NCBI GenBank assembly: GCA_001938485.1
Contig: MQRK01241303.1
Span: 1 to 51,319 of the forward strand
Length of the DNA stretch: 51,319 bases
Direction of reading: 5' to 3'
Origin: Girardia tigrina
Lineage: Eukaryota
The translations under genes were made by a program, and so were the position numbers. Shown piece after piece: positions 4,692 to 42,880 of the stretch; within the stretch, counting starts at the first letter, position 1, and each line of letters begins with the position of its first letter. Under the pieces are notes generated by a model. It searched no databases. It was not told where the DNA came from and saw nothing but the letters and a program-made list of their open reading frames with translations.

Positions 4692-5619
4692 CTAGATATA
4701 TTTATTCATCAACGTCTATCACATTTTTGATATTGGATTAAGTTTGTCCATGAATTAGGGTTTGTCCATGCAGTAATCCACAATATTTATCAATTACAAT
4801 TTGTAAAGTTTCATGAAAAAATATTTTTGATGAACTTTTGTTTTCTGTTTTTTATTATATTAAAAAAAATAAATATTCATTCAATTTTTATTATTTATTT
4901 TCAAAATTAAAATACTCGTATTATTAGATTTCAGATAAAAATAAGAAGTGATTTTTTACAAATAATATTTTTAATGATTTAAATTATTATTTATTTAAAA
5001 AAATTATTCAATAATTTAAAATTTTTAAATATTATTTTTTCTATATATTTATTATTTTTATTAAAAAAAATAATTGACAAAAAAACCTTTTTCAGTATGT
5101 GATTTTAATATTAATTTTTTTCAATAAAATTATGCACGATTTAGTATTGATTGATTTTAATCAAAAAATTTGATTGATTTTTATCTTAATATTGATAAAA
5201 AAAACTAAAACAGAAATACAGGTGTCACAGGAAATTGTGTAAATTACTAGCTGGTGTACTAACTGTGCATTTGTTAATTAAATTAAATAAATAACTTAAA
5301 AGCCATTTACAATAACAGATATCACAAACATTTTTTCGACATTTAATGATGCTATTTGAGCAATGATATTATTTGGTGCTTTCATTTTTTCAATGCGAAA
5401 TCTTAAATAAAAAACAAAAATTTTATTCATCCTCGTCCAAGAATTTGATATCCTAATATAGTGGATTCCGCTTTATTGGGACTTATCGTGACTTTGGCAC
5501 TTTGTCCTAATTAAGAGAATATCACGTTTTTTCAATTCAATTCATGCTATTAAATAATAATGACCAAATTTAATAAAACGATGCTTATTTTTATTCAACA
5601 ATTGAGAATACATAAAATA

Positions 5620-7342: not shown

Positions 7343-9173
7343 TTGTTAGAAATTCTTCATAGTTAATAATAAGAACTTGCTACATATTCTCCTTTTCTTC
7401 GTCGCTTAAAAATTTGGAAATATCTAAGGGTTTAAAGCAACAATTGATAAAACAGTTCTGTATTGTATTGGTTTTTATAGCTTGCCAACTGTCAACGAGG
7501 GGAATTTTTGAACTAATCTCTCTGGCTGTAGTGGAACTTGTTAATAAGTTTTCATCAATAGATTCTAATATGTAATTAACCAATTTTCAACGATACAAAG
7601 TCTTTAAATTTTTTATTACGTCCATATCCATTGGTTGAACTAACGATGTGGTACTTGGGGGAATAAATTCCAGCTGTATATTTTGTAGATTGTCTAAATG
7701 AGGATGTGTCGCAAAATTGTCAACAAGCAGCAAAATTTTTCTTTGTTGAATTTGTAAGTTTTGATCCCAACTAGTAAGCCACTCTCGAAAAATTTCGGAA
7801 GTCATCCATGCATTTTTGTTCGTATAGTACTCCACTGGTAAAGCCTCCATTCTTAATCCTTTCAAGCATCGAGGCCTACAACTTTTTCCAATAATCAGTA
7901 GCTTTCGTTTGTCAGTACCCAACATATTTGCCCAACATAACACAGTAATACGGTCCATCGCTTTTTTATAACCGGACAGTGTTATGTGTTTATAACATAA
8001 GGAACCATCTCGCGTTGCACGATAATAGAGACCGGTTTCATCGGCATTGAAAATGTCATCAGCACAAAATTTCTCTAAAAAAGTAGGGATTTTCATAGTG
8101 TTCCACTGTTCGGCACTTTCGTTGTCGGCACTGCCCTTTTCACTGTGTGCTTTTCTAAATTTAATATTGTGTCTTGCTTTCCATCGCGATAACCAACCAT
8201 CAGTTGATTTGAAATCGTTGCTTCCCAGTTTTTTATCCAATATTTCTAACTTTGCTTTTAACATTGGGCCGTTGATATTTACGCCTCTGCCACTAACGAT
8301 TGAAAAAATTTTATCTAATGCTTCTTCAACGTCTGGATCATTTCCCTCACGTTTTCTTTTGTATGTTCTTGCTTGTCGTTCTTGTAAAAGTAATTCCTCA
8401 CGAAGTTGATTCTCTTGTTGTAAGACACGCGATATGGTAGATTTTGGTACACCAGTGATCTCAGCAAGACGACGATAACTTGTATTAGGTGGCAGATTTT
8501 TATTTTATTCAGCAACGCAATTTTATTTGAAAGTGTCAAATCATTTCTTGGCATTTTGGCAAGGATTAATTTTTTTGTAAATAAACAAACAAAATAAAGT
8601 TTAAATTTACTGTTCCAATTAAACAAACAATTTCATTATTTATTTCTTGTTTTTGTTTCGGTTCTTTGAGATTTGTCCCAAATAAGCGGCTGTCCCAATT
8701 AATTTATGCGTGTCAAGAAGAAGGCCACATAAGAAGAACAGAAATGGCCATTATAGAACTCAATAATCAAAAACTATATCAATCAAAGAAAGATGACCAA
8801 TGAGAATTGTTGTGAAGAATCTGTTTGTGTTGTCAATAAATGTTCACATCCAAATTGTGATGTTGCTAATAGTATTTATGTGGAGAGATAACTTTAGAGG
8901 AGAGAGCTTTGCATAAACTTTAGATCTAATAAAAGATTTCTATCAATAAAAATTGTTTATTGTTTTTGGTTCGTTGTTATTTATTACATTATTAAATTAC
9001 GTAAAATTATTTGTGTTGGGGGACATTTTTACAAGTGCCATTTTAGGGGCGGAATTTGTACAAGATCCCTGCATTGTAATTTTAGTATATTCATCACATT
9101 CAGAGTTATTCCCTATTTACTATTAATATTAATTATTATAAACAAATAAACGCCATTTAAAAATATATTTTAG

Positions 9174-9212: not shown

Positions 9213-11640
9213 ACTGATTATGTTCTTTTTTATTGCTTTTATATATGAAATGAATGATTATGCAATCACTTACGTAAGTCTAATCGAAAACTCTTAACAA
9301 ATTAGTTGAGAGTGCTGTTTGAACATTGATTTTAGGATCACATGATCTTATCAACAATGCTTCACATGACACTCTCTCCCAATAATTTTTTAAATGCTTG
9401 CACAATATCTTAAAATCATTTATGCTCATATTACAGTTACACGTTTTTTATGCTCAGCAATATCACTCTTTTACCCTTTTTGACTGTGTTCTTGGACTCG
9501 TTTGCAGAGATGACGGGCAGTCTCTCCGATTTATATGACATTGCACCCATTACATGTATATTGATAAACAATGTCCGAACACAATCCTAAAGGAGTATGT
9601 GATTTATTGCAAAACATATTCTCAACTTTAAATGATTGAGAAATAATTTTTAAATNNNNNNNNNNNNNNNNNNNNNNNNNNNNNNNNNNNNNNNNNNNNN
9701 NNNNNNNNNNNNNNNNNNNNNNNNNNNNNNNNNNNNNNNNNNNNNNNNNNNNNNNNNNNNNNNNNNNNNNNNNNNNNNNNNNNNNNNNNNNNNNNNNNNN
9801 NNNNNNNNNNNNNNNNNNNNNNNNNNNNNNNNNNNNNNNNNNNNNNNNNNNNNNNNNNNNNNNNNNNNNNNNNNNNNNNNNNNNNNNNNNNNNNNNNNNN
9901 NNNNNNNNNNNNNNNNNNNNNNNNNNNNNNNNNNNNNNNNNNNNNNNNNNNNNNNNNNNNNNNNNNNNNNNNNNNNNNNNNNNNNNNNNNNNNNNNNNNN
10001 NNNNNNNNNNNNNNNNNNNNNNNNNNNNNNNNNNNNNNNNNNNNNNNNNNNNNNNNNNNNNNNNNNNNNNNNNNNNNNNNNNNNNNNNNNNNNNNNNNNN
10101 NNNNNNNNNNNNNNNNNNNNNNNNNNNNNNNNNNNNNNNNNNNNNNNNNNNNNNNNNNNNNNNNNNNNNNNNNNNNNNNNNNNNNNNNNNNNNNNNNNNN
10201 NNNNNNNNNNNNNNNNNNNNNNNNNNNNNNNNNNNNNNNNNNNNNNNNNNTTTTCTTCAATGGAAGAAAGAAATATAGAGGCTAACGTCGGAGCCAATGG
10301 TGAACCCATTGCAACCCCATCTATTTGTTTGTACCATTCACCATTAAATAGAAAATGGACATTTGAAGTTGCAAATGTTAAGAGTTTTCGAAAAGCAACT
10401 TCATCTAAATCAGAATTGTCCAGATTATTCTTATGCCAAAGTTCACAACATAATTCGATGGTTTCCTGTAACGGAACATTAGTAAATAGACTCGATACAT
10501 CAAAGGAAACCATAAAATCATTTTCAGTTCGTATTTCAAAATTAGCAATGGAATTCACAAACTCAAAACTGTCCTTACAAATAAAATCATTAGGAATGAA
10601 AGATTTTATCTTCGTATCTAGATATTTAGCAATATTGTACTGAGACGTACGGATCATAGATTGAACCGGTCGCATTGTATGTATTCGCCATCTTTATGTA
10701 CTTTAGGAAGACCGTATAATTTTGCTGGTTGAGAACCAGACACATGAAGTAAGTCAAAAACATCCTTCGTAATGTGTCCATCATTTAAAAGGTTTTTTAA
10801 CAACGAGAACAAGTATATGAAATATATCGAAAGAAAACTGATACTGGTTTGTACACCTCCATAAACAGTTTTTGTGAGTTTAAATATAAAAGGAATATGA
10901 TCAAAGGTTTGTTATACCGCTCTTGGTCTCTTTCTTCNNNNNNNNNNNNNNNNNNNNNNNNNNNNNNNNNNNNNNNNNNNNNNNNNNNNNNNNNNNNNNN
11001 NNNTAAGTCCATCATAGACAGACTCACTCGTGAGACTGTAGATAAAATAATCGAAAAAGAAAAAATCAATAATGAACAAATTAATAGTTTAAACATTGGA
11101 AACTGCTTTACACCCGGGTATACTCTAAGCTTTCCTTACTCCGAGGGTTTTAAACACCTCAAGAATTCGATCTTGAAATCAACAGATAACATTTTAAATT
11201 TAAAAATTATTTCTCAATCATTTAAAGTTGAGAATATGTTTTGCAATAAATCACATACTCCTTTAGGATTGTGTTCGGACATTGTTTATCAATATACATG
11301 TAATGGGTGCAATGTCATATAAATCGGAGAGACTGCCCGTCATCTCTGCAAACGAGTCCAAGAACACAGTCAAAAAGGGTAAAAGAGTGATATTGCTGAG
11401 CATAAAAAACGTGTAACTGTAATATGAGCATAAATGATTTTAAGATGTTGTGCAAGCATTTTAACAATTATTGGGAGAGAGTGTCATGTGAAGCATTGTT
11501 GATAAGATCATGTGATCCTAAAATCAATGTTCAAACAGCACTCTCAACTAATTTGTTAAGAGTTTTCGATTAGACTTACGTAAGTGATTGCATAATCATT
11601 CATTTCTTATATAAAAGCAATAAAAAAGAACATAATCAGA

Positions 11641-16746: not shown

Positions 16747-17289
16747 TTAAAAAAATTCAAAATAGTTATTTTTCGTCATGAGATTTGAATTATCATTATC
16801 GTAAATAATTTATATTTCATCACTTCTTTTAGATTCTTTTCGCTATCTTTTTTTGGTTCCTACCTTTTTCATTTAATTTTTAGCATTGTTTTTTATCTTC
16901 GTTCATGTTGACAAAATAATTTAAAATTTTTGAAATGTTGGCTTATCGGTGTGCTTATAGAACTTTTATCAATAAAAGAAGTCAAAAATAAGATTTTTTT
17001 TCTTTTTTAAATATTTATTTATGATGTACCGATTACAGATTGTTTAACAAAACTTAAATCTTATAGTAAGAATTTAAATTTTAGATAGATGGTGAAGCAA
17101 TTATACTCGCTCCAACTAAAGTTTAAATTACATAAAGATATAGTTACTTTAAGAATATATATAAATTATATGTTTCTCCCGTACTTAAAAATAAATAACT
17201 TTTTGCTGATATATTCAATTGTGAGTTTTCAGTTGTAACTTTCGTTCAATTCGTTTCAGCGCGATCTCTCACGTCAATCATTACTTTAT

Positions 17290-19190
17290 ATACTCACCTG
17301 GAAATCCAGAAAAAATCAGGTAGTGAAATTGTTCCCCACCTTAAAGCTGATGAAGGATATGTTTATCTGGGTAGCTTCATCTCCCGTCTACTCCGTCATA
17401 CTCCTGAGGAAGTTATTGCAGATGTTCTTGCTGATCTTGCCTCCTCAAAAACTCTGTTCTCTCCCCTGCCAGAAACTCCATGCCTATCAGACCTTTGTTC
17501 ATCCGAAGATGATCTTTTACTTCCGAAACACCTACATCCCCTTTCCTGATATTACGGCCTGGAAAACCGGTTGGGAAATTATTGTCCGGAAGGAACATAA
17601 AAAAGTTTCTTAATCTACTGTCACGGGCGTCCAATTCCTATATCTACACAGATAGGCAGCACGGTGGTGTTGGGCTTACATCGGTGTTTGACGAATATAT
17701 GGTGCAGTCAATCACACACAGTTTCTACCTACTTAACTCTTCTGATAGTTTTGTTAAAGACGCTGTGTGGACTACCCTGAAATTCGCATCCAAAAAACAA
17801 ACTAGAAATGGGATCTTCTACTGGATTAATGAGGGGTTTCATGCGTCTGTATGCAATAACTGGTGAAACAAAATCCAACATGCAATTTTGCATTGAAAAA
17901 TATTGGCATCACAATATTTTTGGCATCACGCCCCCTCATGTCGTATACGAATGCTCGTCACGACTCTGTTCTTGACATTCTTGCGTCTGAGATTTAAGAA
18001 CACACCAATGCTGAACTTGACGTCAATCTCCGTTGTGGAGACGAGTTCCCCCTCACCTGCATTACTATCAGACTTTCCAAAGAGGATTACCAGATTGCTT
18101 CCACAATCCATGCATCTGAAATGGTAAAATTCTCTGTGTTTTTAAGAAAATGTCTCTCCCTTCATTACCTTTTCTTTTGGACTGAGCAGAAAAGTGCAGG
18201 TCGATCGGCGTCTGCTCTCTTCCTCTCTTCCTACACGACGTCTGTCGTCTATAAAAGTCATCTTTCCACTTTTGAATGGGAGTTCATTCAGAAGGGTCGC
18301 TTCTATACTCTCCCTGTCAACTGTCGCTTTAAGGTCACTGTCCTTTGTAGACGCTGTAATGAATATGCCGAGACCCTGCTCCATGTTCTTTGCTGCTGTC
18401 GCCCCCTCATGTCGTATACGAATGCTCGTCACGACTCTGTTCTTGACATTCTTGTGTCTGAGATTTAAGAACACACCAATGCTGAACTTGACGTCAATCT
18501 CCGTAGTCGCTTTGTGCACTCTCCGCTCAGAGTCGACTTACAGATTCACTTCCCCGACAAAAAAGGATCGTCTTAATTGATGTCAAGTGTCCTTGTGATG
18601 AAAAGGATAATCTGGAACGGACTAACAATGACAACCTTGAACACTATAAAATGTTAAAAGAAAGTATACAGGAGAAATACGGCGATCATAAGGTATTATT
18701 GTTCACGTTCATTATAGGAGCTCTGGGAACGTGGATTCTAGATAACATCAAACTGCTCCGGGTGATTTTCTTATCACACAGAGAGAAAGCCATCGCCTAT
18801 GCGGCTATCCGGAGCAATATTCGTTGGAGCGCACGACAATGGGCTGCATTTGGCGATAGAAGAGACGCATCTAACCTGTCTCGATTCCGGGATGATCCGG
18901 CCCATGACCCAAGAGCCCCGTCAATCGAAGGTCAAATCTTTGAAGATGAAGTAAACGACAATACCGAATCAATCCAACCAAACTCCAGTAATCACCGAAG
19001 TGGCGACCAGTGATCCTGATGCAAATTAGCCAACACAACAAATCAGATCAAGTCCCGGAAAGGGCAACTAATAACTTTTGTTTCGAAATAAATTTTTGTA
19101 CATAATTGTCTTCCTCGAGTAAAACAATTGATCCGCCGTTCAAAATAATTGGTTACGTAAATTATTGTAACTCTTTTTCAATAAACTTTA
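17290..19190 (+). mobile_element. 5'-truncated, decayed RLE-type non-LTR retrotransposon (NeSL/R5/Utopia-like)
   Basis: RT end (YVYLG, GGVGL), CCHC CRRC..ETLLHVLCCC, RHDSVL, endonuclease RVDL..LIDVKCP and GALGTW; AATAAA near 19180; stops and frameshifts. Confidence 0.85.
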
Positions 19191-23315: not shown

Positions 23316-25632
23316 ATTCAAACGGTTCTTTCACTGTTAGAGTTTGACTGACTTCTTTAGTTTTCTCTGTAAAAACCTTTTTTTCTTGATAGATTTTACA
23401 ACTCCGAACAAAGTTTCTTCAAACTGGTTCATTTCATAATTATCCTGTAGAAATTTAAAAACCTTTTGACAGCCTGTATGGTATAGTATGCGGTGATAGA
23501 GTTTTATAAATTCCTATATTTTCTCTCTCGGTACATATATCTTATTTTTCTTTCGGACAAGTCCATCTACAATATTATATTCTAAACATTCTTTTGTTCC
23601 AATTTTTTACTTATTTTTTTAATTTCCTGATAATCTTTTTGCAGAGAGGGTATCAAATTCTCCTGATCCATTGCCAACAATCTTGTTTGACACTTTGTTC
23701 TTTTTGCATCTATATGTCCCATCTGGCACTGTTTACACAACTCAGTGTTCCTTCTTGAAATTGCGTCTGCGTTACCATGCTTCTCTCCTTTTCGATATTC
23801 TAATTTTATGTTCAGGCTGCTCAAAAAATTTATCCAATTCTGGAATTGTGCAGTAATCGGTTTTCTAGTCGTCAACATAAATGTGATGGCTCGATGATCA
23901 GTCCTTAAAATGAATCTTTTACCATAAAGATAATGTTTAAAATGTTGCGTGAAATGAAATACTGCTAACAATTCCTTCCTTGTTATGTAATATCCAAGTT
24001 CATGCTTAGTCATGCTCCGAGATCCAAAAGTTATGAATCTTTCTCGGCCCTCTCTATCTGCTTGGGACAATACCGCTCTGATTGTATCGAAACTCGCATC
24101 CGTGTCAAGAATAAATTCTTGGGAAAAATCTGGGTATCTTAAAATAGGAGTATTCAACAATTTTTCTTTCAATTCCGTAAAAGCTCTGTCACATTCATCC
24201 GTCCAGACAATACTTTTATTTTTAACATTTATTAATGATTCTAACGGTCTTGAATATCTTGAATAGTCTTTAATAAACTTCCTATAATAATTGACTAGAC
24301 CGAGAAAACTTCTCACATGTTTTACGCATTTTGGTCTTTCGAATTTCTTTATAACGTCAATTTTATCCATATCAGTCTTTTTTTTCTTCGGAATTTATTA
24401 TATGACCTAAAAATTTTATTTCTGGTACAAGAAATTTACATTTATAAGGATTTAATTTCAGACCCGTGCCAGATATTCTGGTGAATAATTTTTCCATTAT
24501 CCTTATGTGATCCTCCAAAGTCTTAGAAAAAACTAATATGTCATCAAAATATACTAAACTCTTTCTCCAATTCATATCTCCAATAAATATTGACATCAAT
24601 TTTTGGAATGTCGATTGGGCTGCTGCAATCCCAAACGGCATTCTGTTAAAGCAGTATTGACCATATTTCATAGAGAATGCAGTATTTTCTTTTGATTTTT
24701 CTTCTAATTCGACGTGGTAATAAGCACTACCTAGGTCAATAGTTGAAAAATATTTTGATCTGTGCAGTGAGTCCATCATCTCGTTAACATTTGGAAGAAG
24801 AAAAGCTGGTCTCACTGATTTAGCGTTCAATAATCTAAAATCTAAACACATGCGTATCTCTTCTGAGTTCTTCTTGGATACACATACAATTGGAGAATTC
24901 CATAGAGATTCACATTTTGATATAATTCCATGTTTCTCCAAATTCTCTATTATTTCCTGTATCTTCCCTTCAAAATGCATTGGTTGACGTCGAACTGGCA
25001 CTGCAATAGTGATGATATGATATTTCAAAATATCAGTCTTTCCTATGTCCCATTTACTAGCCATAATATAGTCCCATATTTCAAAATAAGTTTATATAAT
25101 GGATGTTTTTCAGGTAATAGTTGTTTCGATATTAAGATTTTTCTTCTAGTATCATCTGTTATTTCTGAAAACTTCCCTTCTAAATTACATATCCTACCCA
25201 CTGTTTCAGTACCATATAACGCTATGAATTTCACTCCAATTTTTTCCAAAATATCGACTCAAATTATTTCTTCGGGAATTATTTCATTAGCAACGAACAC
25301 CACGTGATTTACTTACAATCCTCGATATTTTATTTTTAATGTACATTGTCCTAATATTTGCAAAGGACTACCATTTGCACAGGAAATTCGAGTTGATTTA
25401 TTCTTTTCTAAATAACCTTTAATTAATTTCAAAATTTCGGCACTGATCACACTAATCTTTGCTCCTGTATCAAAAAGACATTAGCAATATACGTTATTCA
25501 AAGTTACTCTTCCAAAAGATTTCATATCACTATCATTTCCTTTTATAATGTTATTTTCTCCTATTTCTATTAATCTCATTACGTCAGTATCAAGTTTGTT
25601 GACAATTCCTAATCTTATTTTATCTACAACTA

Positions 25633-25939
25633 CGCCTCCCTCCCGCGGTAATCCGCATACGCCCCTCAGGAGCCAAAGGAGCCGAGTCGGTGTTTCATCG
25701 GGTTTCACCCCTCAACTGATAATGGGTGTTGTCCGAAGACATTTCCACATCCCGCTCGGATAGCAATGCCTTTTAAAGGGGTGAATTGCAGGCCCAGACC
25801 CCCGTACTATGTTGGTCAGCACCCCAACAAGGCAAGCTTCGGACACTTTAGCCTAGAGCACGCTCTAGTTTCCCAGGGACACCACGTGAAGGTATGTCCG
25901 ACTGGCTTAACACAAGTTTCCAAAGTAACAGGTCCCCTC
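25633..25939 (-). mobile_element. 307-bp non-coding SINE-like retroposon headed by an HDV-like ribozyme
   Basis: Perfect 11-bp TSD ATCTACAACTA (25622-25632, 25940-25950). GC-rich island inside AT-rich Gypsy sequence; no TIR, no poly(A), no tRNA head seen. Confidence 0.85.
25839..25937 (-). ncRNA. HDV-like (nested double-pseudoknot) self-cleaving ribozyme
   Basis: P1 GGGGAC/GUCCCU (G1-U wobble); P2 UCGGACAU/GUGUCCGA; P3 ACC/GGU with L3 UUCACGU; GG after P1 for P1.1; P4 CUAGAG(CGUG)CUCUAG; J4/2 GCUAAA with catalytic-position C at 25851. Confidence 0.85.
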
Positions 25940-28900
25940 ATCTACAACTAATTTCTTTTACACAGTTGACTGTTTATCTATCTTCTTGTTCAATACTAAA
26001 CAGCTATCTTGAAATTCAGTAAGTTCTTTTCATATAACTCTATTATAAGATTTTTCTTTATTATCAGTCGCACAATTTCCATTCTTTAAAATACTATATT
26101 CATTAAATTCATTATTATTAACTTTATTATTGTATTTGTCATCGTAATTATTTGTATCATTATTAACATTATCATCAACTGTATTAAAAAATGTTTTATT
26201 AATATTAAATTTATTATTAAATGTATTATTATAATTAGTTGTATCATTATTAACATTATCATTAATTGTATAAAAAACATTTTTATTATTATCAATCAAA
26301 AAATTTTCATTCGGCAACATACAATGTTCATTAACGTTCTGTTCTGTAAGCCATGTAAAATCATCACATTCATTAATAATATCACAATAAGTGATCCTCT
26401 CATCATACTTTAGTACACAGTCATACATATTATTTACATTACAATAATCACCATTCACACATTCGACTTTTAAAAATCGAGTATCGTTTACAACATCACT
26501 TACTGCGTCTGAATAGCTCCGAGCATTTCCCCGATGTACGAAGCATGTCAATTTCCCGTCAGCAAATCATGTCCAGTCCGATATCTCTGTTCCGCATCGT
26601 TGTTCGAATTCTGAAATTCGGCTCTCTCCGCTATTCACTGCGGCTATCGGATCATCTGAATTCGTCCTCCTTTGCCCATCATATTCGGTTTGTCTCGAAT
26701 TGGATCTCACTGGTGCGCCTCTGTCGTTCAATCTGTCGTTGTCTCTTCTAGCAAAATAGCATTGCTAGATTGAATGACCGTTTCTGTGACATTTTGAACT
26801 TTTAATATTTTGGCAGTTCCTCCGAATATGTCCAAATTCCCGACAAGCGTAACATTGAGGTTCATATCTTGGAAGTTGTCTCAAATTTGGGTTGGACTTC
26901 GTGACTTCTCTGTATATAATTTGTGGTCTTCTGTTTGGCTAGTGATACTCTCTTCTGTTCGAAAATTGTTGATGATTATGTGGTCCGTTTTTTGTGTCAT
27001 TGCAGCATAACTGGGTCGATTTATAACCAATACCTCGTCTTGTCTCGTCCTAGCTTCGACTGTCTTCAATATCTCCTTGATATATTTTGTCGGTGTAGGG
27101 ACTTTTTGATCTTCGATCTCGGAATTGTCTTTTCCAAACTTCAGTTTCAGCAAAGTTTCAGTATATTCGAATCTTGAAACTTCTTCTCTCATCTTCTCGT
27201 CATCAAGACAGTAGTTTAGTAAAAAAGCTGTTAACTTTATTGATGTTAACTTGTGCTTCATTACTTTTTCGACATTTTTCTCAATTTGTCGAATATACTC
27301 ATCAATTGATGCTGTTCCTTTCCTAATAGCAAGAACATTTTTTTGGATTAAATTTTTTTTGGATTGAGGGATAATTCGTAGTAGTTCGCTTGTATTTAGC
27401 GTGGTCGTCATGTTATCCATTTAAAATAAAATGACTAATTCCGATTCTAAGATTTATTAATTATAACACAATATCCATAATCTCGATTATTTAATGGGAA
27501 AAATAGTGATGTTATAATGACTCACATTTTCAAAGCCTTTTCATTGGTTTACACTCTCAAACACACATATACTATCAACATACTTTCAGCATACATTCAA
27601 CATCAGACAAATAACCCATTTTATTGTATCATCACACAATCAATGTCATCAGCAATCACACAATAATTATTACGTAAGTAATCTTAGTTATTTCAGGTAG
27701 TAACAAGCAATATTTATTACGTAACTATTCCTACTCACAAGAATGATGACAAACGATGAAAGGCTTTCTGAGAGTCATAATGACTCTAAATGTGATTGTA
27801 ATAAAAATTTAAACGAGACTTGTCTAAATGCTCTTAATACGGACAATCTTTTAATTCTTTCATGTCCTTAATTTTAAATTTTCCTTCAGAAATTAGTACA
27901 CTTAGTTTTAATACCAAAGTTGTTTCCATGTAGAAAGTCAGCAATGTTGTCATTGAACCAGCTGTTGTTGACACGATATTAATGAGCAGGTGTTCCGCCT
28001 ATTTAAACTTAATTAATTAACTTCTTTTTTTTGTTAAAATCTCTATCTGTTAACTCTACGATTTAAATAAACTAATAGTCTTTCTCATTCCCTTTATCTT
28101 CCTTTTATACTTTTCTTTTTAACTTAAACTTTCTTTATTTACAACTTAAATAAACTTAATTATTCTTGTTACAAAAATATTTCTTCATTTTATTGGAATT
28201 GTTTGCATTTTATTTAGTTATAATCTAATTATTTATATATATTTTAAATTTATTTTAATAGTGGAGAAAATATTCTATTTAACTCATTTAATTAAAACAA
28301 TACATTAAAAAAACAATACCTAACAGTTGTCCGGGAGGCATGAAATATATGTCCCCTGTTTTGTCCCAAAACTTGTTTTTTAGTTTTTCCGTTTATATTT
28401 AACTATTTTATGTTTTAGTTTTGCTTAGAAAATTAATTATTTAATTTGGTTTTATAATTAAATGTAATATTTTATATGGTGAAAAAAGTAGATTTTGTTT
28501 TAATGCACAAAAAATGCAGAGTTTGAATTTGATTGAAAATCAGTCATAATAATGTCGTGGAATAAATTTTTGTGTACTATCGTATTATTTATCAATTTGT
28601 CAAATACTGATTATGAGAAAACATATGATCTGGTATTAAATGTCTCGGACACCATATGCATATAAATAAAATAATCAAAAGTATACACAATACATAGGAA
28701 AGAATAAAGTTATACATGCAACAAGATATAGAAAGAACAAGCTAAATCAACATCAAAGTCAAACATAAAAAATTGTCAATTGAATTATCAGTCATCCGTC
28801 AGATCGTAAGACGTAACTCACTGAATGGATCGTGCCGGACATAGGGTTCATCTTTGATCATCTATTACTGAGGCGAGAACCACGGTAGAAATGGTTGGTC

Positions 28901-32181: not shown

Positions 32182-33771
32182 ACGGATATCGCCAAATAGT
32201 ATCACTAAATTTTTTTTAAGTTGGTGATACTATTTGGGTCGTCATACTATTTGGTGCTTTCAATTCCCATTAACAAAAATATCAAAATATGAATAAAAAA
32301 GAAAGCAAATATCAATAATACTTTATTCATTAACGACATCCAAACATTCTACATCATCATTATCATCTAAACAGTCTACATTCTGATCATCTACATCTTC
32401 TCCAGAAATAGACTCGTAGGGAAATTGTTCAATCTGGTTTAAAATAGCCTCGCAAAACTTTCTACCATACACATGCTTTGCTATATGCCAATCGTCAGGG
32501 TTTGAACTAAATCCTGATAATATTTTTGAGTTTTGTATGGTTTCGGTTTTCAATTCATTCAAAGATTCTCCGACCCATGAATTTACCAATTCCTTCGATG
32601 GTAGTTTTAGATTACCATTTTTTATATAAACAACAGAATCAGAGTTCTTCCATTCATTAATACGAAAATATATAAAATCTTTCAAGGAACGAAAAATTCC
32701 TATATCTCCTGCTTGTAGATAAGGTGTCAATCCCCCTGAGATCACGATTATTTCAAAATTTCTCTTAATACAATGTTCTTTTACTTGTAGGCCTAAATGA
32801 ACTTGACACGAATCCCAAATAATACACTTACCGTTGCTTAAATCAATCAAAGAAAACATATGGTCGATCCACTTTATAATTAATTCTTGGTTAACCCACG
32901 ATTTTGATTGAGTAGTATGCAAGATACGATTTTGTTTACAAATATGACTTCCATCTTTTCCTTTATGGATTACCAAAGGCATTGCCTTCCTACCATCTGC
33001 CCAAATATAAATCAGTGTTGTTACTCTCATTGAACTAAAACTAGTTGATTTAATTACTACATTGCATGCTCCGAGTAAATCCACAGTATTTGTTCTGGCA
33101 TCCTCAAAAAATACTGCAGTTTCATCCATCATTAAAGTCTTTTTAATATTTAAATAAGGAAGACGATTTTTTAAATATTTCATATAATTAACAGCACGTA
33201 AAATTATGTCAGAGTCTGATAATGTTGTTAAATTGGTAGTTCACCTAAGTGTAAATCCATTTCTCTTCATAAACCATGTTATCCAATTTCCAGTAGCCTT
33301 TAATTTAATACTATACTCATTACTCAATACTACTGCCCTATCAGAAATATACTTCCGACTAACTTTCATTTTTCGTTTTCTAAGATCTATTATCTCATTG
33401 CAAATAATTTGTTCTGTAGTTCCCAAACTGGTTTTCTTTCCTGCTCCCACCGCTCTTTTCATTGATGGTTTTTGATTAACAAGTTTGTCTTTGTTTCTCA
33501 GCCACTGTTGAAACATAGAATGATCATATATTTCCCCGTTTTTAACTTCGAAATGCTGTTTTGCAGCATAAACTCGATTATTTCTTTTTTGAAAGCGATC
33601 GTTTGGCCATAATAATTTTTAAAATGGAATATTTATTAATATTAAAACAATTAAATTAAATGATTTTAAAAATTAATGATTTTTTTTTCAAGTGATTTTT
33701 AAAAACTTAAATATTGATACTGATAGGGTCGTGATACTATATGGGTTGGTGATACTAATTGGCGATATCCG

Positions 33772-41517: not shown

Positions 41518-42880
41518 CAGGGTTTTTCATAAATATAACGACAGTTTTCATAAATAATTGGATAGTTTTCATAAATAAACGGACAAATTTTCATAAAAAA
41601 TAAAAATAATTAAAAATTAATTTTTAAAATCAGGAAACAAACAATAAAAATTCTAGTATATAAACCTTTCGATATATTTTTTTGAATTTATTACAAGATC
41701 GATAGAAAGTATACAATTTTTCAAATACAATAAAAATGGAAAATCAAAATACAAATACTCACGATCAACGCAAACAGAATAGTAATGGCGAATAGTTTAC
41801 CACAATGGCGGAAGCAGTTAATTATCGACGAAGGTTCCACCAGATGCAAGCTCTGTCGGCATAGTTGCAGTGCGAATTATAGATTTGGCTCAAATGGCTT
41901 CTAGGCCTCAATTAGATGAATGTAGGGGAAAAGCATACGTCGGTGATAATGGCACTTGAATGCACGGATAATTCCAGTTTCCATAGGTTCAATTTGAGAG
42001 GTGGTATTGGGCGGGCGGAAGAGGAGTTTGACTGATTTCAAATTAGTTATGTCAGAATTGGCCGGGTAATTGTCAACGATGAGGATCATTTATCTCTTTT
42101 GAATTGTTATTGTTCGGTCGAAATTTCGAACAAAGGTCTCAAACAATGAACTCACCGTCCATGCTATCTTATTAGCTTTGTACTCCACTGGAAGTAGTTG
42201 AATTCCTTTAAAACATCGGGGTTTTGATGACTTTCCTATGACAAGCAATGGATGCTTGTCTGTGCCATCCACATTGGCACAAAGAAGCACAGTAATCCTC
42301 TGCTTCTTGGCTTTCTCACCAACGTATTTTTCTCCTTTAAATGTGAGAGTTGACAATGGTAATAACTGCCACAAAAGACCGGTCTCATCGGATTTATATA
42401 TTTCAGAGGGAGAATATTCACTAAGAAGAACTGGAATAGCACTTTGATTAAACGCAGCAACACCAAGTTGATCACCACTTATAACTTTTCACAATGGAAT
42501 GCCGTGTTTTGAATCGTTCCAGCCAGGCTTTGTTACAACTGAAATCATTCATTCTCAGCTGTGCTGCAAAATCATTAGCTTTCTTCAATAGAACATCCGT
42601 AGAAATGGAGTTTTGATTTAATCTCATTTGCTGAAACCATAAAAGAAGACACTGATCCAGTTCAGAATAGGTGCATTGTCTCATACGCTTCCAATCTGGT
42701 GTGACACTTTCAAGAGCAGACATGATTTTAGTTTCTTCTTTTACCCAACTGTTGAGCGTGGCATTTTGAACTAATCACACACTTAAAAATTTTAACGTAA
42801 AATTTTTAACGCCGGCCTTGATTTTTTATGGCTTGTGCTTTCACGTCAAGAGAATTTGAAGAATAACTGTTTCGCTTCAT
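41518..42880 (-). mobile_element. Decayed Tigger/pogo element
   Basis: ORF pieces 41901-42880 (WLERFKTRH, DETGLLW, KQRITVLLCAN, PPNTTS..EPME). Four ~21-bp TTTCATAAA repeats at 41518-41600 may be its subterminal repeats; left boundary uncertain. Confidence 0.85.

Follow-up and report, generated by a model that had tools for sequence, protein, structure and literature searches.

The window examined here is a 51,319-nucleotide stretch of the Girardia tigrina genome (assembly GCA_001938485.1, contig MQRK01241303.1, positions 1 to 51,319, forward strand). On its minus strand, a 306-bp insertion without an open reading frame (ORF) lies in a decayed long terminal repeat (LTR) retrotransposon, which we take to be Ty3/gypsy-like from the order of its motifs. 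The features are listed in Table 1. The insertion belongs to a young, dispersed, multicopy family of ORF-less, non-autonomous non-LTR retroposons, which have their own variable target site duplications (TSDs) and no terminal repeats. It opens with a predicted self-cleaving ribozyme of the hepatitis delta virus (HDV) type, and below we relate it to a lineage of long interspersed nuclear elements (LINEs) that recurs at a site in the 28S rRNA gene.

Table 1. Positions of the insertion, its parts and its host within the window.
Feature	Position	Strand	Basis or remark
Non-autonomous retroposon, 306 bp, full-length	25632..25937	(-)	Genome copies; empty site shorter by 318 bp in runs X5 and X10
TSD, 5′ copy, 12 bp	25938..25949	(-)	Flank comparison and empty-site contigs
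TSD, 3′ copy, 12 bp, 1 mismatch, begins with the family's invariant A	25620..25631	(-)	Flank comparison, empty-site contigs and family 3′ ends
Predicted HDV-like ribozyme (P1 of 6 bp with G1-U, J1/2 of 31 nt, P2, P3/L3, P4, J4/2 with putative catalytic C25851)	25840..25937	(-)	
P1	25937-25932/25880-25875	(-)	
P2	25900-25894/25846-25840	(-)	
P3	25893-25891/25883-25881	(-)	
L3	25890-25884	(-)	
P4	25868-25853	(-)	
Middle region, common to the sister subfamily	25685..25839	(-)	Not significant against LINE untranslated regions; folding energy at the level of shuffled sequence
3′ module without a tail; three-way junction predicted from a closing stem, a short hairpin (3-nt loop) and a further hairpin	25632..25684	(-)	
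Host context, decayed LTR retrotransposon	23582..27420	(-)	Element breaks the frame just upstream of a protease-like motif, on the same strand

The retroposon and its family

Contigs from runs X5 and X10 join position 25619 directly to 25938, a gap of 318 bp that corresponds to the 306-bp element plus one 12-bp copy of the target, and a contig of run X9 carries the filled 3′ junction. The empty-site contigs diverge by 5-8% from the window flanks; since the flank is itself a repeat, they may be paralogues rather than alleles, and in either case they fix the boundaries of the element. An initial, sequence-only reading had described a 307-bp insert with a perfect 11-bp TSD and a ribozyme starting 2 nt inside that duplication. 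From the family 3′ ends and the empty-site contigs, the length is 306 bp and the duplication 12 bp with one mismatch, and the ribozyme starts at the first base of the element. The T that follows the 3′ GCG is present in 45 of 45 distinct 3′ ends and therefore belongs to the element, not to the TSD. Contigs of runs X1 and X5 also cover the element piecewise; being assembled contigs, with the RNA status of X1 a guess, they are not counted as evidence of expression.

The absence of an ORF, an RNA polymerase III (Pol III) head and poly(A), already suspected from the sequence, is borne out. Open stretches reach at most 46 codons on the sense strand (up to 95 on the antisense strand), and the element contains no A or B box by regular expression, no tRNA, no poly(A) and no repeat tail. 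The tRNA, 5S or 7SL head with A and B boxes that defines a classical short interspersed nuclear element (SINE) is not found in it, and an origin as a Pol III SINE was rejected accordingly. The (TAG)n-type tail that had been read at the 3′ end was likewise abandoned: the flanks vary from copy to copy, and only the initial A is universal (45/45), followed in most cases by C (30/45). The proposal that the remainder of the element is structured survives in part. Folding energy gives no support (z of +0.31 for the whole element and of -0.19 to -0.67 for its parts, i.e. no better than shuffles); the 3′ module alone has support across families.

The family was delineated in the 1.43-Gb genome assembly (255,254 contigs), in which our searches score the top candidates only. 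Among 1404 first-look candidates, 40 were scored, namely the window copy and 39 others that are 94-97% identical to it over nearly the whole length, which establishes the non-autonomous family that had been claimed. A TSD was found in 34 of 40 full-length copies, with a length of 7-16 bp and a mode of 11. Copies diverge from the column majority by 2.9% on average, the window copy at 8 positions. Every distinct 3′ end terminates in T with A as the next base, and T occupies the two positions ahead of the target in 29 and 32 of 34 sites, respectively. A further 20 loci carrying the head comprise 11 full copies, 7 sister-type copies, one that is internally deleted and one with an assembly gap. The sister subfamily has the first 262 nt in common with the element and differs in the 3′ module, where its second hairpin is longer (L186, L252:4897-5250, L264-L266, L274, L277, L280 and L281).

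All the parts of an HDV-like ribozyme are present in order from the first base, as the sequence-only reading had it: the nested double pseudoknot comprises P1, P1.1, P2, P3/L3 and P4, with a C in J4/2. An HDV descriptor matches a single locus in the window, the element itself, and nothing in 10 block-shuffled windows. A second descriptor gives 34 matches in the collected loci and none in 586,740 shuffled bases. An Rfam scan of the element stayed below significance (RF02682, 17.2 bits, E 2.8, cut-off 44). All 40 full copies keep the putative catalytic C25851. Covariation, which had been put forward as a check, was found across six related families: changes on both sides of a helix occur in several columns of P1 and P2 and in one each of P3 and P4. 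Strands pair with their own partners better than with swapped ones in P1 (1.00 vs 0.76) and P2 (0.97 vs 0.48), with smaller differences in P3 (0.89 vs 0.82) and the base of P4 (1.00 vs 0.97). The 5′ ends of copies cluster at, or no more than 6 nt from, G1, and P1 measures 6 bp from G1 or 7 bp if the preceding host base pairs. The base before G1 may be an element-encoded U: a T stands before the head in 23 of 29 element or sister copies, but also in 9 of 14 copies of LINE-A and 5 of 8 of LINE-B (see below). On this comparative evidence, we predict that the element opens with a putative self-cleaving HDV-like ribozyme.

It should also be noted that heads of another family, C, fit an HDV-like fold with a hairpin of ~45 nt inserted in L3, which is an unusual place for an insertion (L162:117-280, L160, L169 and L252:1011-1250).

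Candidate partner LINEs and the 3′ module

A search based on the endonuclease family led to a LINE with a related ribozyme upstream, here called LINE-A. It encodes an endonuclease, a reverse transcriptase (RT) and C2H2 fingers in one frame, and occurs as two subfamilies among 150 scored candidates. An HDV-like head begins at the first base of LINE-A, whose 3′ end has no tail and is followed by A; one copy retains a 1241-codon open frame and ends at the 28S site. The G. tigrina genome holds related families, namely LINE-B (57% identity), LINE-D (about 50%) and LINE-C (39%). LINE-A, B and D begin with HDV-like heads, and the LINE-C copy in L252 has a family-C-type head ahead of it. All of these have one long ORF with an apurinic endonuclease (APE) and an RT, without RNase H and without an upstream ORF1, the 5′ untranslated region (UTR) being about 250 nt. 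In a quick RT tree they form one long-branched clade (SH-aLRT 96, or 99 with the database protein P0004) among unnamed single-ORF homologues. From this architecture and from their motifs, the partner LINEs appear to be RTE-like. A clade label for the lineage was provided by neither PDB, the protein atlas nor the cluster names. Public data contain additional relatives of the lineage; a metagenome scan with P0004 returned nothing, and one with alignment A1 returned 80 distant loci, none with an HDV descriptor match or the 28S site.

Two further observations concern this lineage. L256 (G000:C216975) and L123 have a LINE-A ribozyme head with a different UTR, and the ORF of L256 is 48% identical to that of LINE-A, i.e. 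a possible fifth family or a head swap. In addition, the proteins P0048 and P0052, relatives of a eukaryote-type LINE protein, appear on short contigs under bacterial genome-bin names and are probably host DNA in the bins.

The ribozyme core of the element aligns with that of LINE-A better than any of 500 shuffles (7 of 500 score as well for LINE-B). The comparison of its middle region with the UTRs of LINE-A and B is not significant (75 and 88 of 500 shuffles). As a bipartite derivative the element thus has a 5′ part homologous to a LINE 5′ end and no 3′ sequence match to a LINE. When the last 65 nt were used to look for a LINE with the same 3′ end, all 30 loci recovered were element copies or contig-end fragments (one locus, L037, is without the first 79 nt). 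In the LINE-C and D loci, blast matches to the element were confined to element copies and the ribozyme core. The autonomous LINE sharing both ends that had been anticipated was therefore not found, the core alone providing the match, and the missing 3′ match speaks against a simple LINE deletion derivative. As for the postulated RTE-like partner, candidates with homologous ribozymes do exist in the same genome; their 3′ sequence is unmatched.

What the 3′ ends seem to have in common is shape. The three-way junction, whose short hairpin is closed by a 3-nt loop, is the minimum-energy fold for the element, two sister ends, two of three ends of the type of unit A (a non-coding unit described below) and the LINE-C end, and it can be drawn for LINE-A. 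This module is likely the protein-binding end of the RNA. The ribozyme core, the predicted three-way junction and a TT|AC target are common to the element and the RTE-like LINEs, at least four single-ORF families of them. LINE-A is the likely partner, on the grounds of its intact frame, its presence at both insertion hotspots (see below) and its direct tandem with a sister copy in L265. LINE-C and D are alternative candidates; the adjacency of LINE-C to the element may merely reflect the fact that its T-rich end recreates the target.

The 28S site, chains and target preference

Several loci place these elements together in 28S rDNA. In L090 and L251, a 28S fragment ends in the target 11-mer, ACCACAGGGAT, and is followed by unit A, LINE-A, unit A′ and a 1.67-kb non-coding unit, after which 28S resumes; the spacer between the four units is this 11-mer or a one-base variant of it. 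The four-unit chain in L252 has the same 11-mer spacer and consists of a LINE-C end, a 92% copy of the element, a LINE-C body and a sister element, followed by 28S. A chain is also found at L178, a locus with a hybrid of unit A and the element. The element family itself occupies the 28S site in L183, inside about 2 kb of 28S (Rfam RF02543, 830 bits), and in L252; at the site in L267 there is a head of the family or its sister. L183 further contains, upstream of the occupied site, what we assume to be the R2/R1 region, and the occupied site presumably lies in the peptidyl-transferase region. Anopheles RT1/RT2 may insert near the same 28S position.

Among 30 fetched loci with upstream 28S sequence, 18 reach the site. 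Two of these are uninformative, and all of the remaining 16 are interrupted at it, in 15 cases by units recognised by eye. The 30 loci with downstream 28S sequence are preceded by an element end (20), an 18S piece (1) or unrelated DNA (8), and one is uninterrupted. At least seven different 3′ end types abut the site. Its occupancy cannot be estimated from these loci, since intact rDNA arrays may have been collapsed or skipped.

Most sampled copies are dispersed nonetheless: only 1 of 38 unbiased family junctions lies within two mismatches of the 28S 11-mer. These dispersed targets still lean towards the 11-mer over positions 3-11 (119 vs 84.9; 0 of 5000 shuffles), as do held-out junctions that include sister copies (n=18; 51 vs 40.6; 142 of 5000 shuffles). 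Both LINE-A subfamilies, LINE-D, the element family and its sister also use a second hotspot, which lies in an endonuclease motif of Penelope. In L265, a sister copy is followed directly by a LINE-A head, with an identical non-28S spacer on both sides. One 28S site thus recurs while most copies lie elsewhere, and the site is a preference and not a strict specificity.

A number of other inserts were seen at the 28S site. At least five other non-coding families occur there, namely unit A, B-D (1.67 kb), C, E and the A/element hybrid in L178; such units are located at L090:686-950, 4832-5235 and 5257-end, and in L251, L152, L178, L189 and L191. In L184 (G000:C178589), the 28S site is fused directly at the 11-mer with a putative 18S rRNA piece, which we take to be the 3′ part, as though rRNA had served as template. 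L183 and L092/L254 have 5′-truncated inserts at the site with several hundred bases of upstream 28S gone, resembling R2-associated deletions. Finally, the 28S fragments of L166-L168, L171, L176, L177 and L179 break off precisely at the predicted nick position that precedes the 11-mer, with unrelated DNA beyond it.

The window itself contains other remnants, whose names we assign from motifs in the ORF list: an R2/NeSL-like element at 17199-19013 (+), in which 18507-19013 has no Pfam match, a Penelope-like RT at 9650-11322 (-), and DNA transposase remnants at 7587-8504, 32323-33618 and 42090-42774 (-).

Proposed mechanism, related systems and alternatives

We consider it fairly probable that the insertion is an ORF-less 306-bp retroposon that is likely freed by its predicted 5′ ribozyme and likely inserted in trans by a 28S-preferring, RTE-like LINE lineage. 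The family, its boundaries and TSDs, the TT|AC target signature, the shared 28S and Penelope hotspots and the chains with LINEs are direct observations. Self-cleavage by the ribozyme would release the element's 5′ end from a read-through RNA. A LINE protein would bind the three-way junction in trans by its shape, nick the bottom strand opposite TT|AC, prime by a short AC match and reverse-transcribe. Source copies would likely lie within rDNA chains, where cleavage by the ribozyme of the next unit may fall 11 nt beyond the element, so that the target 11-mer stays on the RNA as priming homology instead of a tail. Such processing would explain the missing tail and the invariant A; we hold this chain-processing step only tentatively. 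The dispersed copies, including that in the window, would be insertions of relaxed specificity.

Comparison with known systems delimits what is new here. Unlike R2 SIDEs, the element has single-ORF, APE-type RTE-like LINEs as its candidate partners, and its 28S site lies downstream of the region in L183 that we take to be the R2/R1 region; identity with an R2 SIDE was rejected on these two points. Both R2 SIDEs and hybrid R2/R1 SIDEs (Eickbush and Eickbush 2012, PMC3414825) resemble the element in being non-autonomous, with a 5′ HDV-like ribozyme, a 3′ recognition module, no SINE-type promoter, a location in 28S rDNA and a TSD set by the partner enzyme. SIDEs are described there as rare, whereas the element is abundant outside rDNA and several passenger families coexist with it and form chains. 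The RTE-N families, RIME and NARTc (Kojima 2018, PMC5786205) are likewise about 300 bp and ORF-less, with a ribozyme-type 5′ end, an RTE-type partner and their own TSDs. Published bipartite derivatives match LINE 5′ and 3′ UTRs at about 70-90% (PMC5786205), whereas the element matches in the ribozyme core only and at its 3′ end by predicted shape; unlike RTE-N, RIME and NARTc, it has no microsatellite or poly(A) tail.

On the side of the LINEs, HDV-like ribozymes are known in RTE elements (PMC6765202; PMC5786205), and RTE-clade LINEs have, like our candidates, a single ORF with endonuclease then RT, a 5′ ribozyme, a TSD of 10-14 bp and 1-2 bases of 3′ microhomology (PMC6007223, PMC6765202). 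The candidates differ in their C-terminal C2H2 fingers, recurrent 28S site and absence of a microsatellite tail; the TSD signatures described for RTE-related elements are correlated with tails of microsatellite type (PMC6007223), and RTE-1 is listed as randomly integrating (PMC13708176). Site-specific LINEs of the R1 and Tx1 clades share with them an APE endonuclease, a multicopy RNA gene target and a fixed TSD (PMC4640811, PMC1919474), and target-specific non-LTR families belong mostly to the early-branching (restriction-like-endonuclease), Tx1 and R1 groups (PMC4640811). Unlike R1 and Tx1 elements, the candidates have one long ORF without an upstream ORF1 and a much looser specificity. In the open literature searched, no paper describes an RTE-type element inserted at this 28S site; Repbase, Dfam and supplements lay outside that scope, and S6 Fig of PMC4640811, on planarian 28S targets, may bear on how new the site is. 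The ribozyme-headed passenger is thus already known as a type, and the new points are RTE-like partners with a recurrent 28S site, the passenger guild and the chains.

Several results weigh against the account proposed above. Regarding the ribozyme, P3 and the base of P4 hardly vary across families, and the P2 register was picked for maximal pairing. Within the family, the core varies no less than the middle region (0.032 vs 0.025; J4/2 plus the P2 3′ strand 0.008), and a strict core pattern is passed by only 22 of 40 copies; as regards cleavage, the run data are contigs, which cannot reveal RNA ends. The three-way-junction descriptor, built post hoc, also matches shuffles (3-20% of them) but neither family D nor LINE-C, and the fold is not the minimum-energy one of LINE-A. 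The element 3′ end scores against LINE-A and LINE-B no better than 295 and 395 of 500 shuffles, and none of the 20 further head-carrying loci continues into an ORF. The RT tree includes no named RTE reference, and PF20049, a domain that we assume to be linked to RTE, is found in 10 of 23 distant homologues and not matched in LINE-A. Finally, the 28S pieces are fragments in a highly divided assembly (255,254 contigs) and may lie outside transcribed arrays.

Much of the above could also be accommodated by a bipartite derivative of the usual RTE type whose TT|AC preference is only loose. The 28S site would then be one of many good matches, enriched because rDNA fragments are multicopy and an insertion can recreate the target for its successor, transcripts would arise by host read-through or from an internal Pol II promoter, and 3′ ends would form without a downstream ribozyme. 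Bipartite non-autonomous LINEs are indeed known from RTE, Ingi, Vingi and R2 (PMC5786205), the sampled copies are mostly dispersed with the single near-match to the 11-mer noted above, the second hotspot is in a Penelope repeat, and the T-rich LINE-C end recreates TT ahead of the duplicated 11-mer. Still, a loose preference sits poorly with the interruption of all 16 informative loci at the same bond, the variety of 3′ end types that abut it, the leaning of dispersed TSDs towards the 28S 11-mer beyond AC and the intact LINE-A frame at the site, and we regard this explanation as unlikely.

The chains could instead be products rather than sources, made by template jumps within single integrations as the RT, on reaching the 5′ end of one ribozyme-cleaved RNA, switches to the 3′ end of another. 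In vivo template jumping is reported for R2 (PMC3414825), and the L265 tandem, with its same non-28S spacer on both sides, would fit it. The spacers within chains are the full target 11-mer, however, which would still require RNAs that end in the 11-mer, and the units of L252 differ from one another as old and young families do; jumping is thus an improbable source of the chains. We consider it more improbable still that the partner is an unsampled element, e.g. a 28S-targeting family with a restriction-like endonuclease, and that the RTE-like LINEs merely share its site. The unmatched 3′ end and searches that score top candidates only would leave room for such a partner, and a planarian is described as having families of the NeSL clade that target 28S (PMC4640811; PMC5035012). 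Against it stand the homologous ribozyme core, the same TT|AC signature, the 11-bp duplications at shared sites, and the same two hotspots and direct tandem contacts that tie the element to the RTE-like LINEs.

Beyond insertion in trans by RTE-like LINEs, a wider scenario is possible, if rather doubtful. An undescribed lineage of the RTE group may have evolved 28S targeting at a fixed 11-bp site and come to host a guild of ribozyme-headed passengers. Its chains would process themselves, the ribozyme of each unit defining that unit's own 5′ end as well as the 3′ end of the preceding unit, with the 11-mer as primer; promoter, poly(A) and tail would be replaced by ribozymes and a 3′ junction recognised by shape. 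If true, a single-ORF RTE-like lineage with a 28S preference would represent a separate origin of rDNA targeting, placed between specific and dispersed behaviour. The chains make it possible to test directly how tail-less retrotransposon RNAs that are co-transcribed acquire their 3′ ends, and the six or more families form a natural set in which covariation can be studied, both for HDV-like ribozymes and for the recognition of templates by shape.

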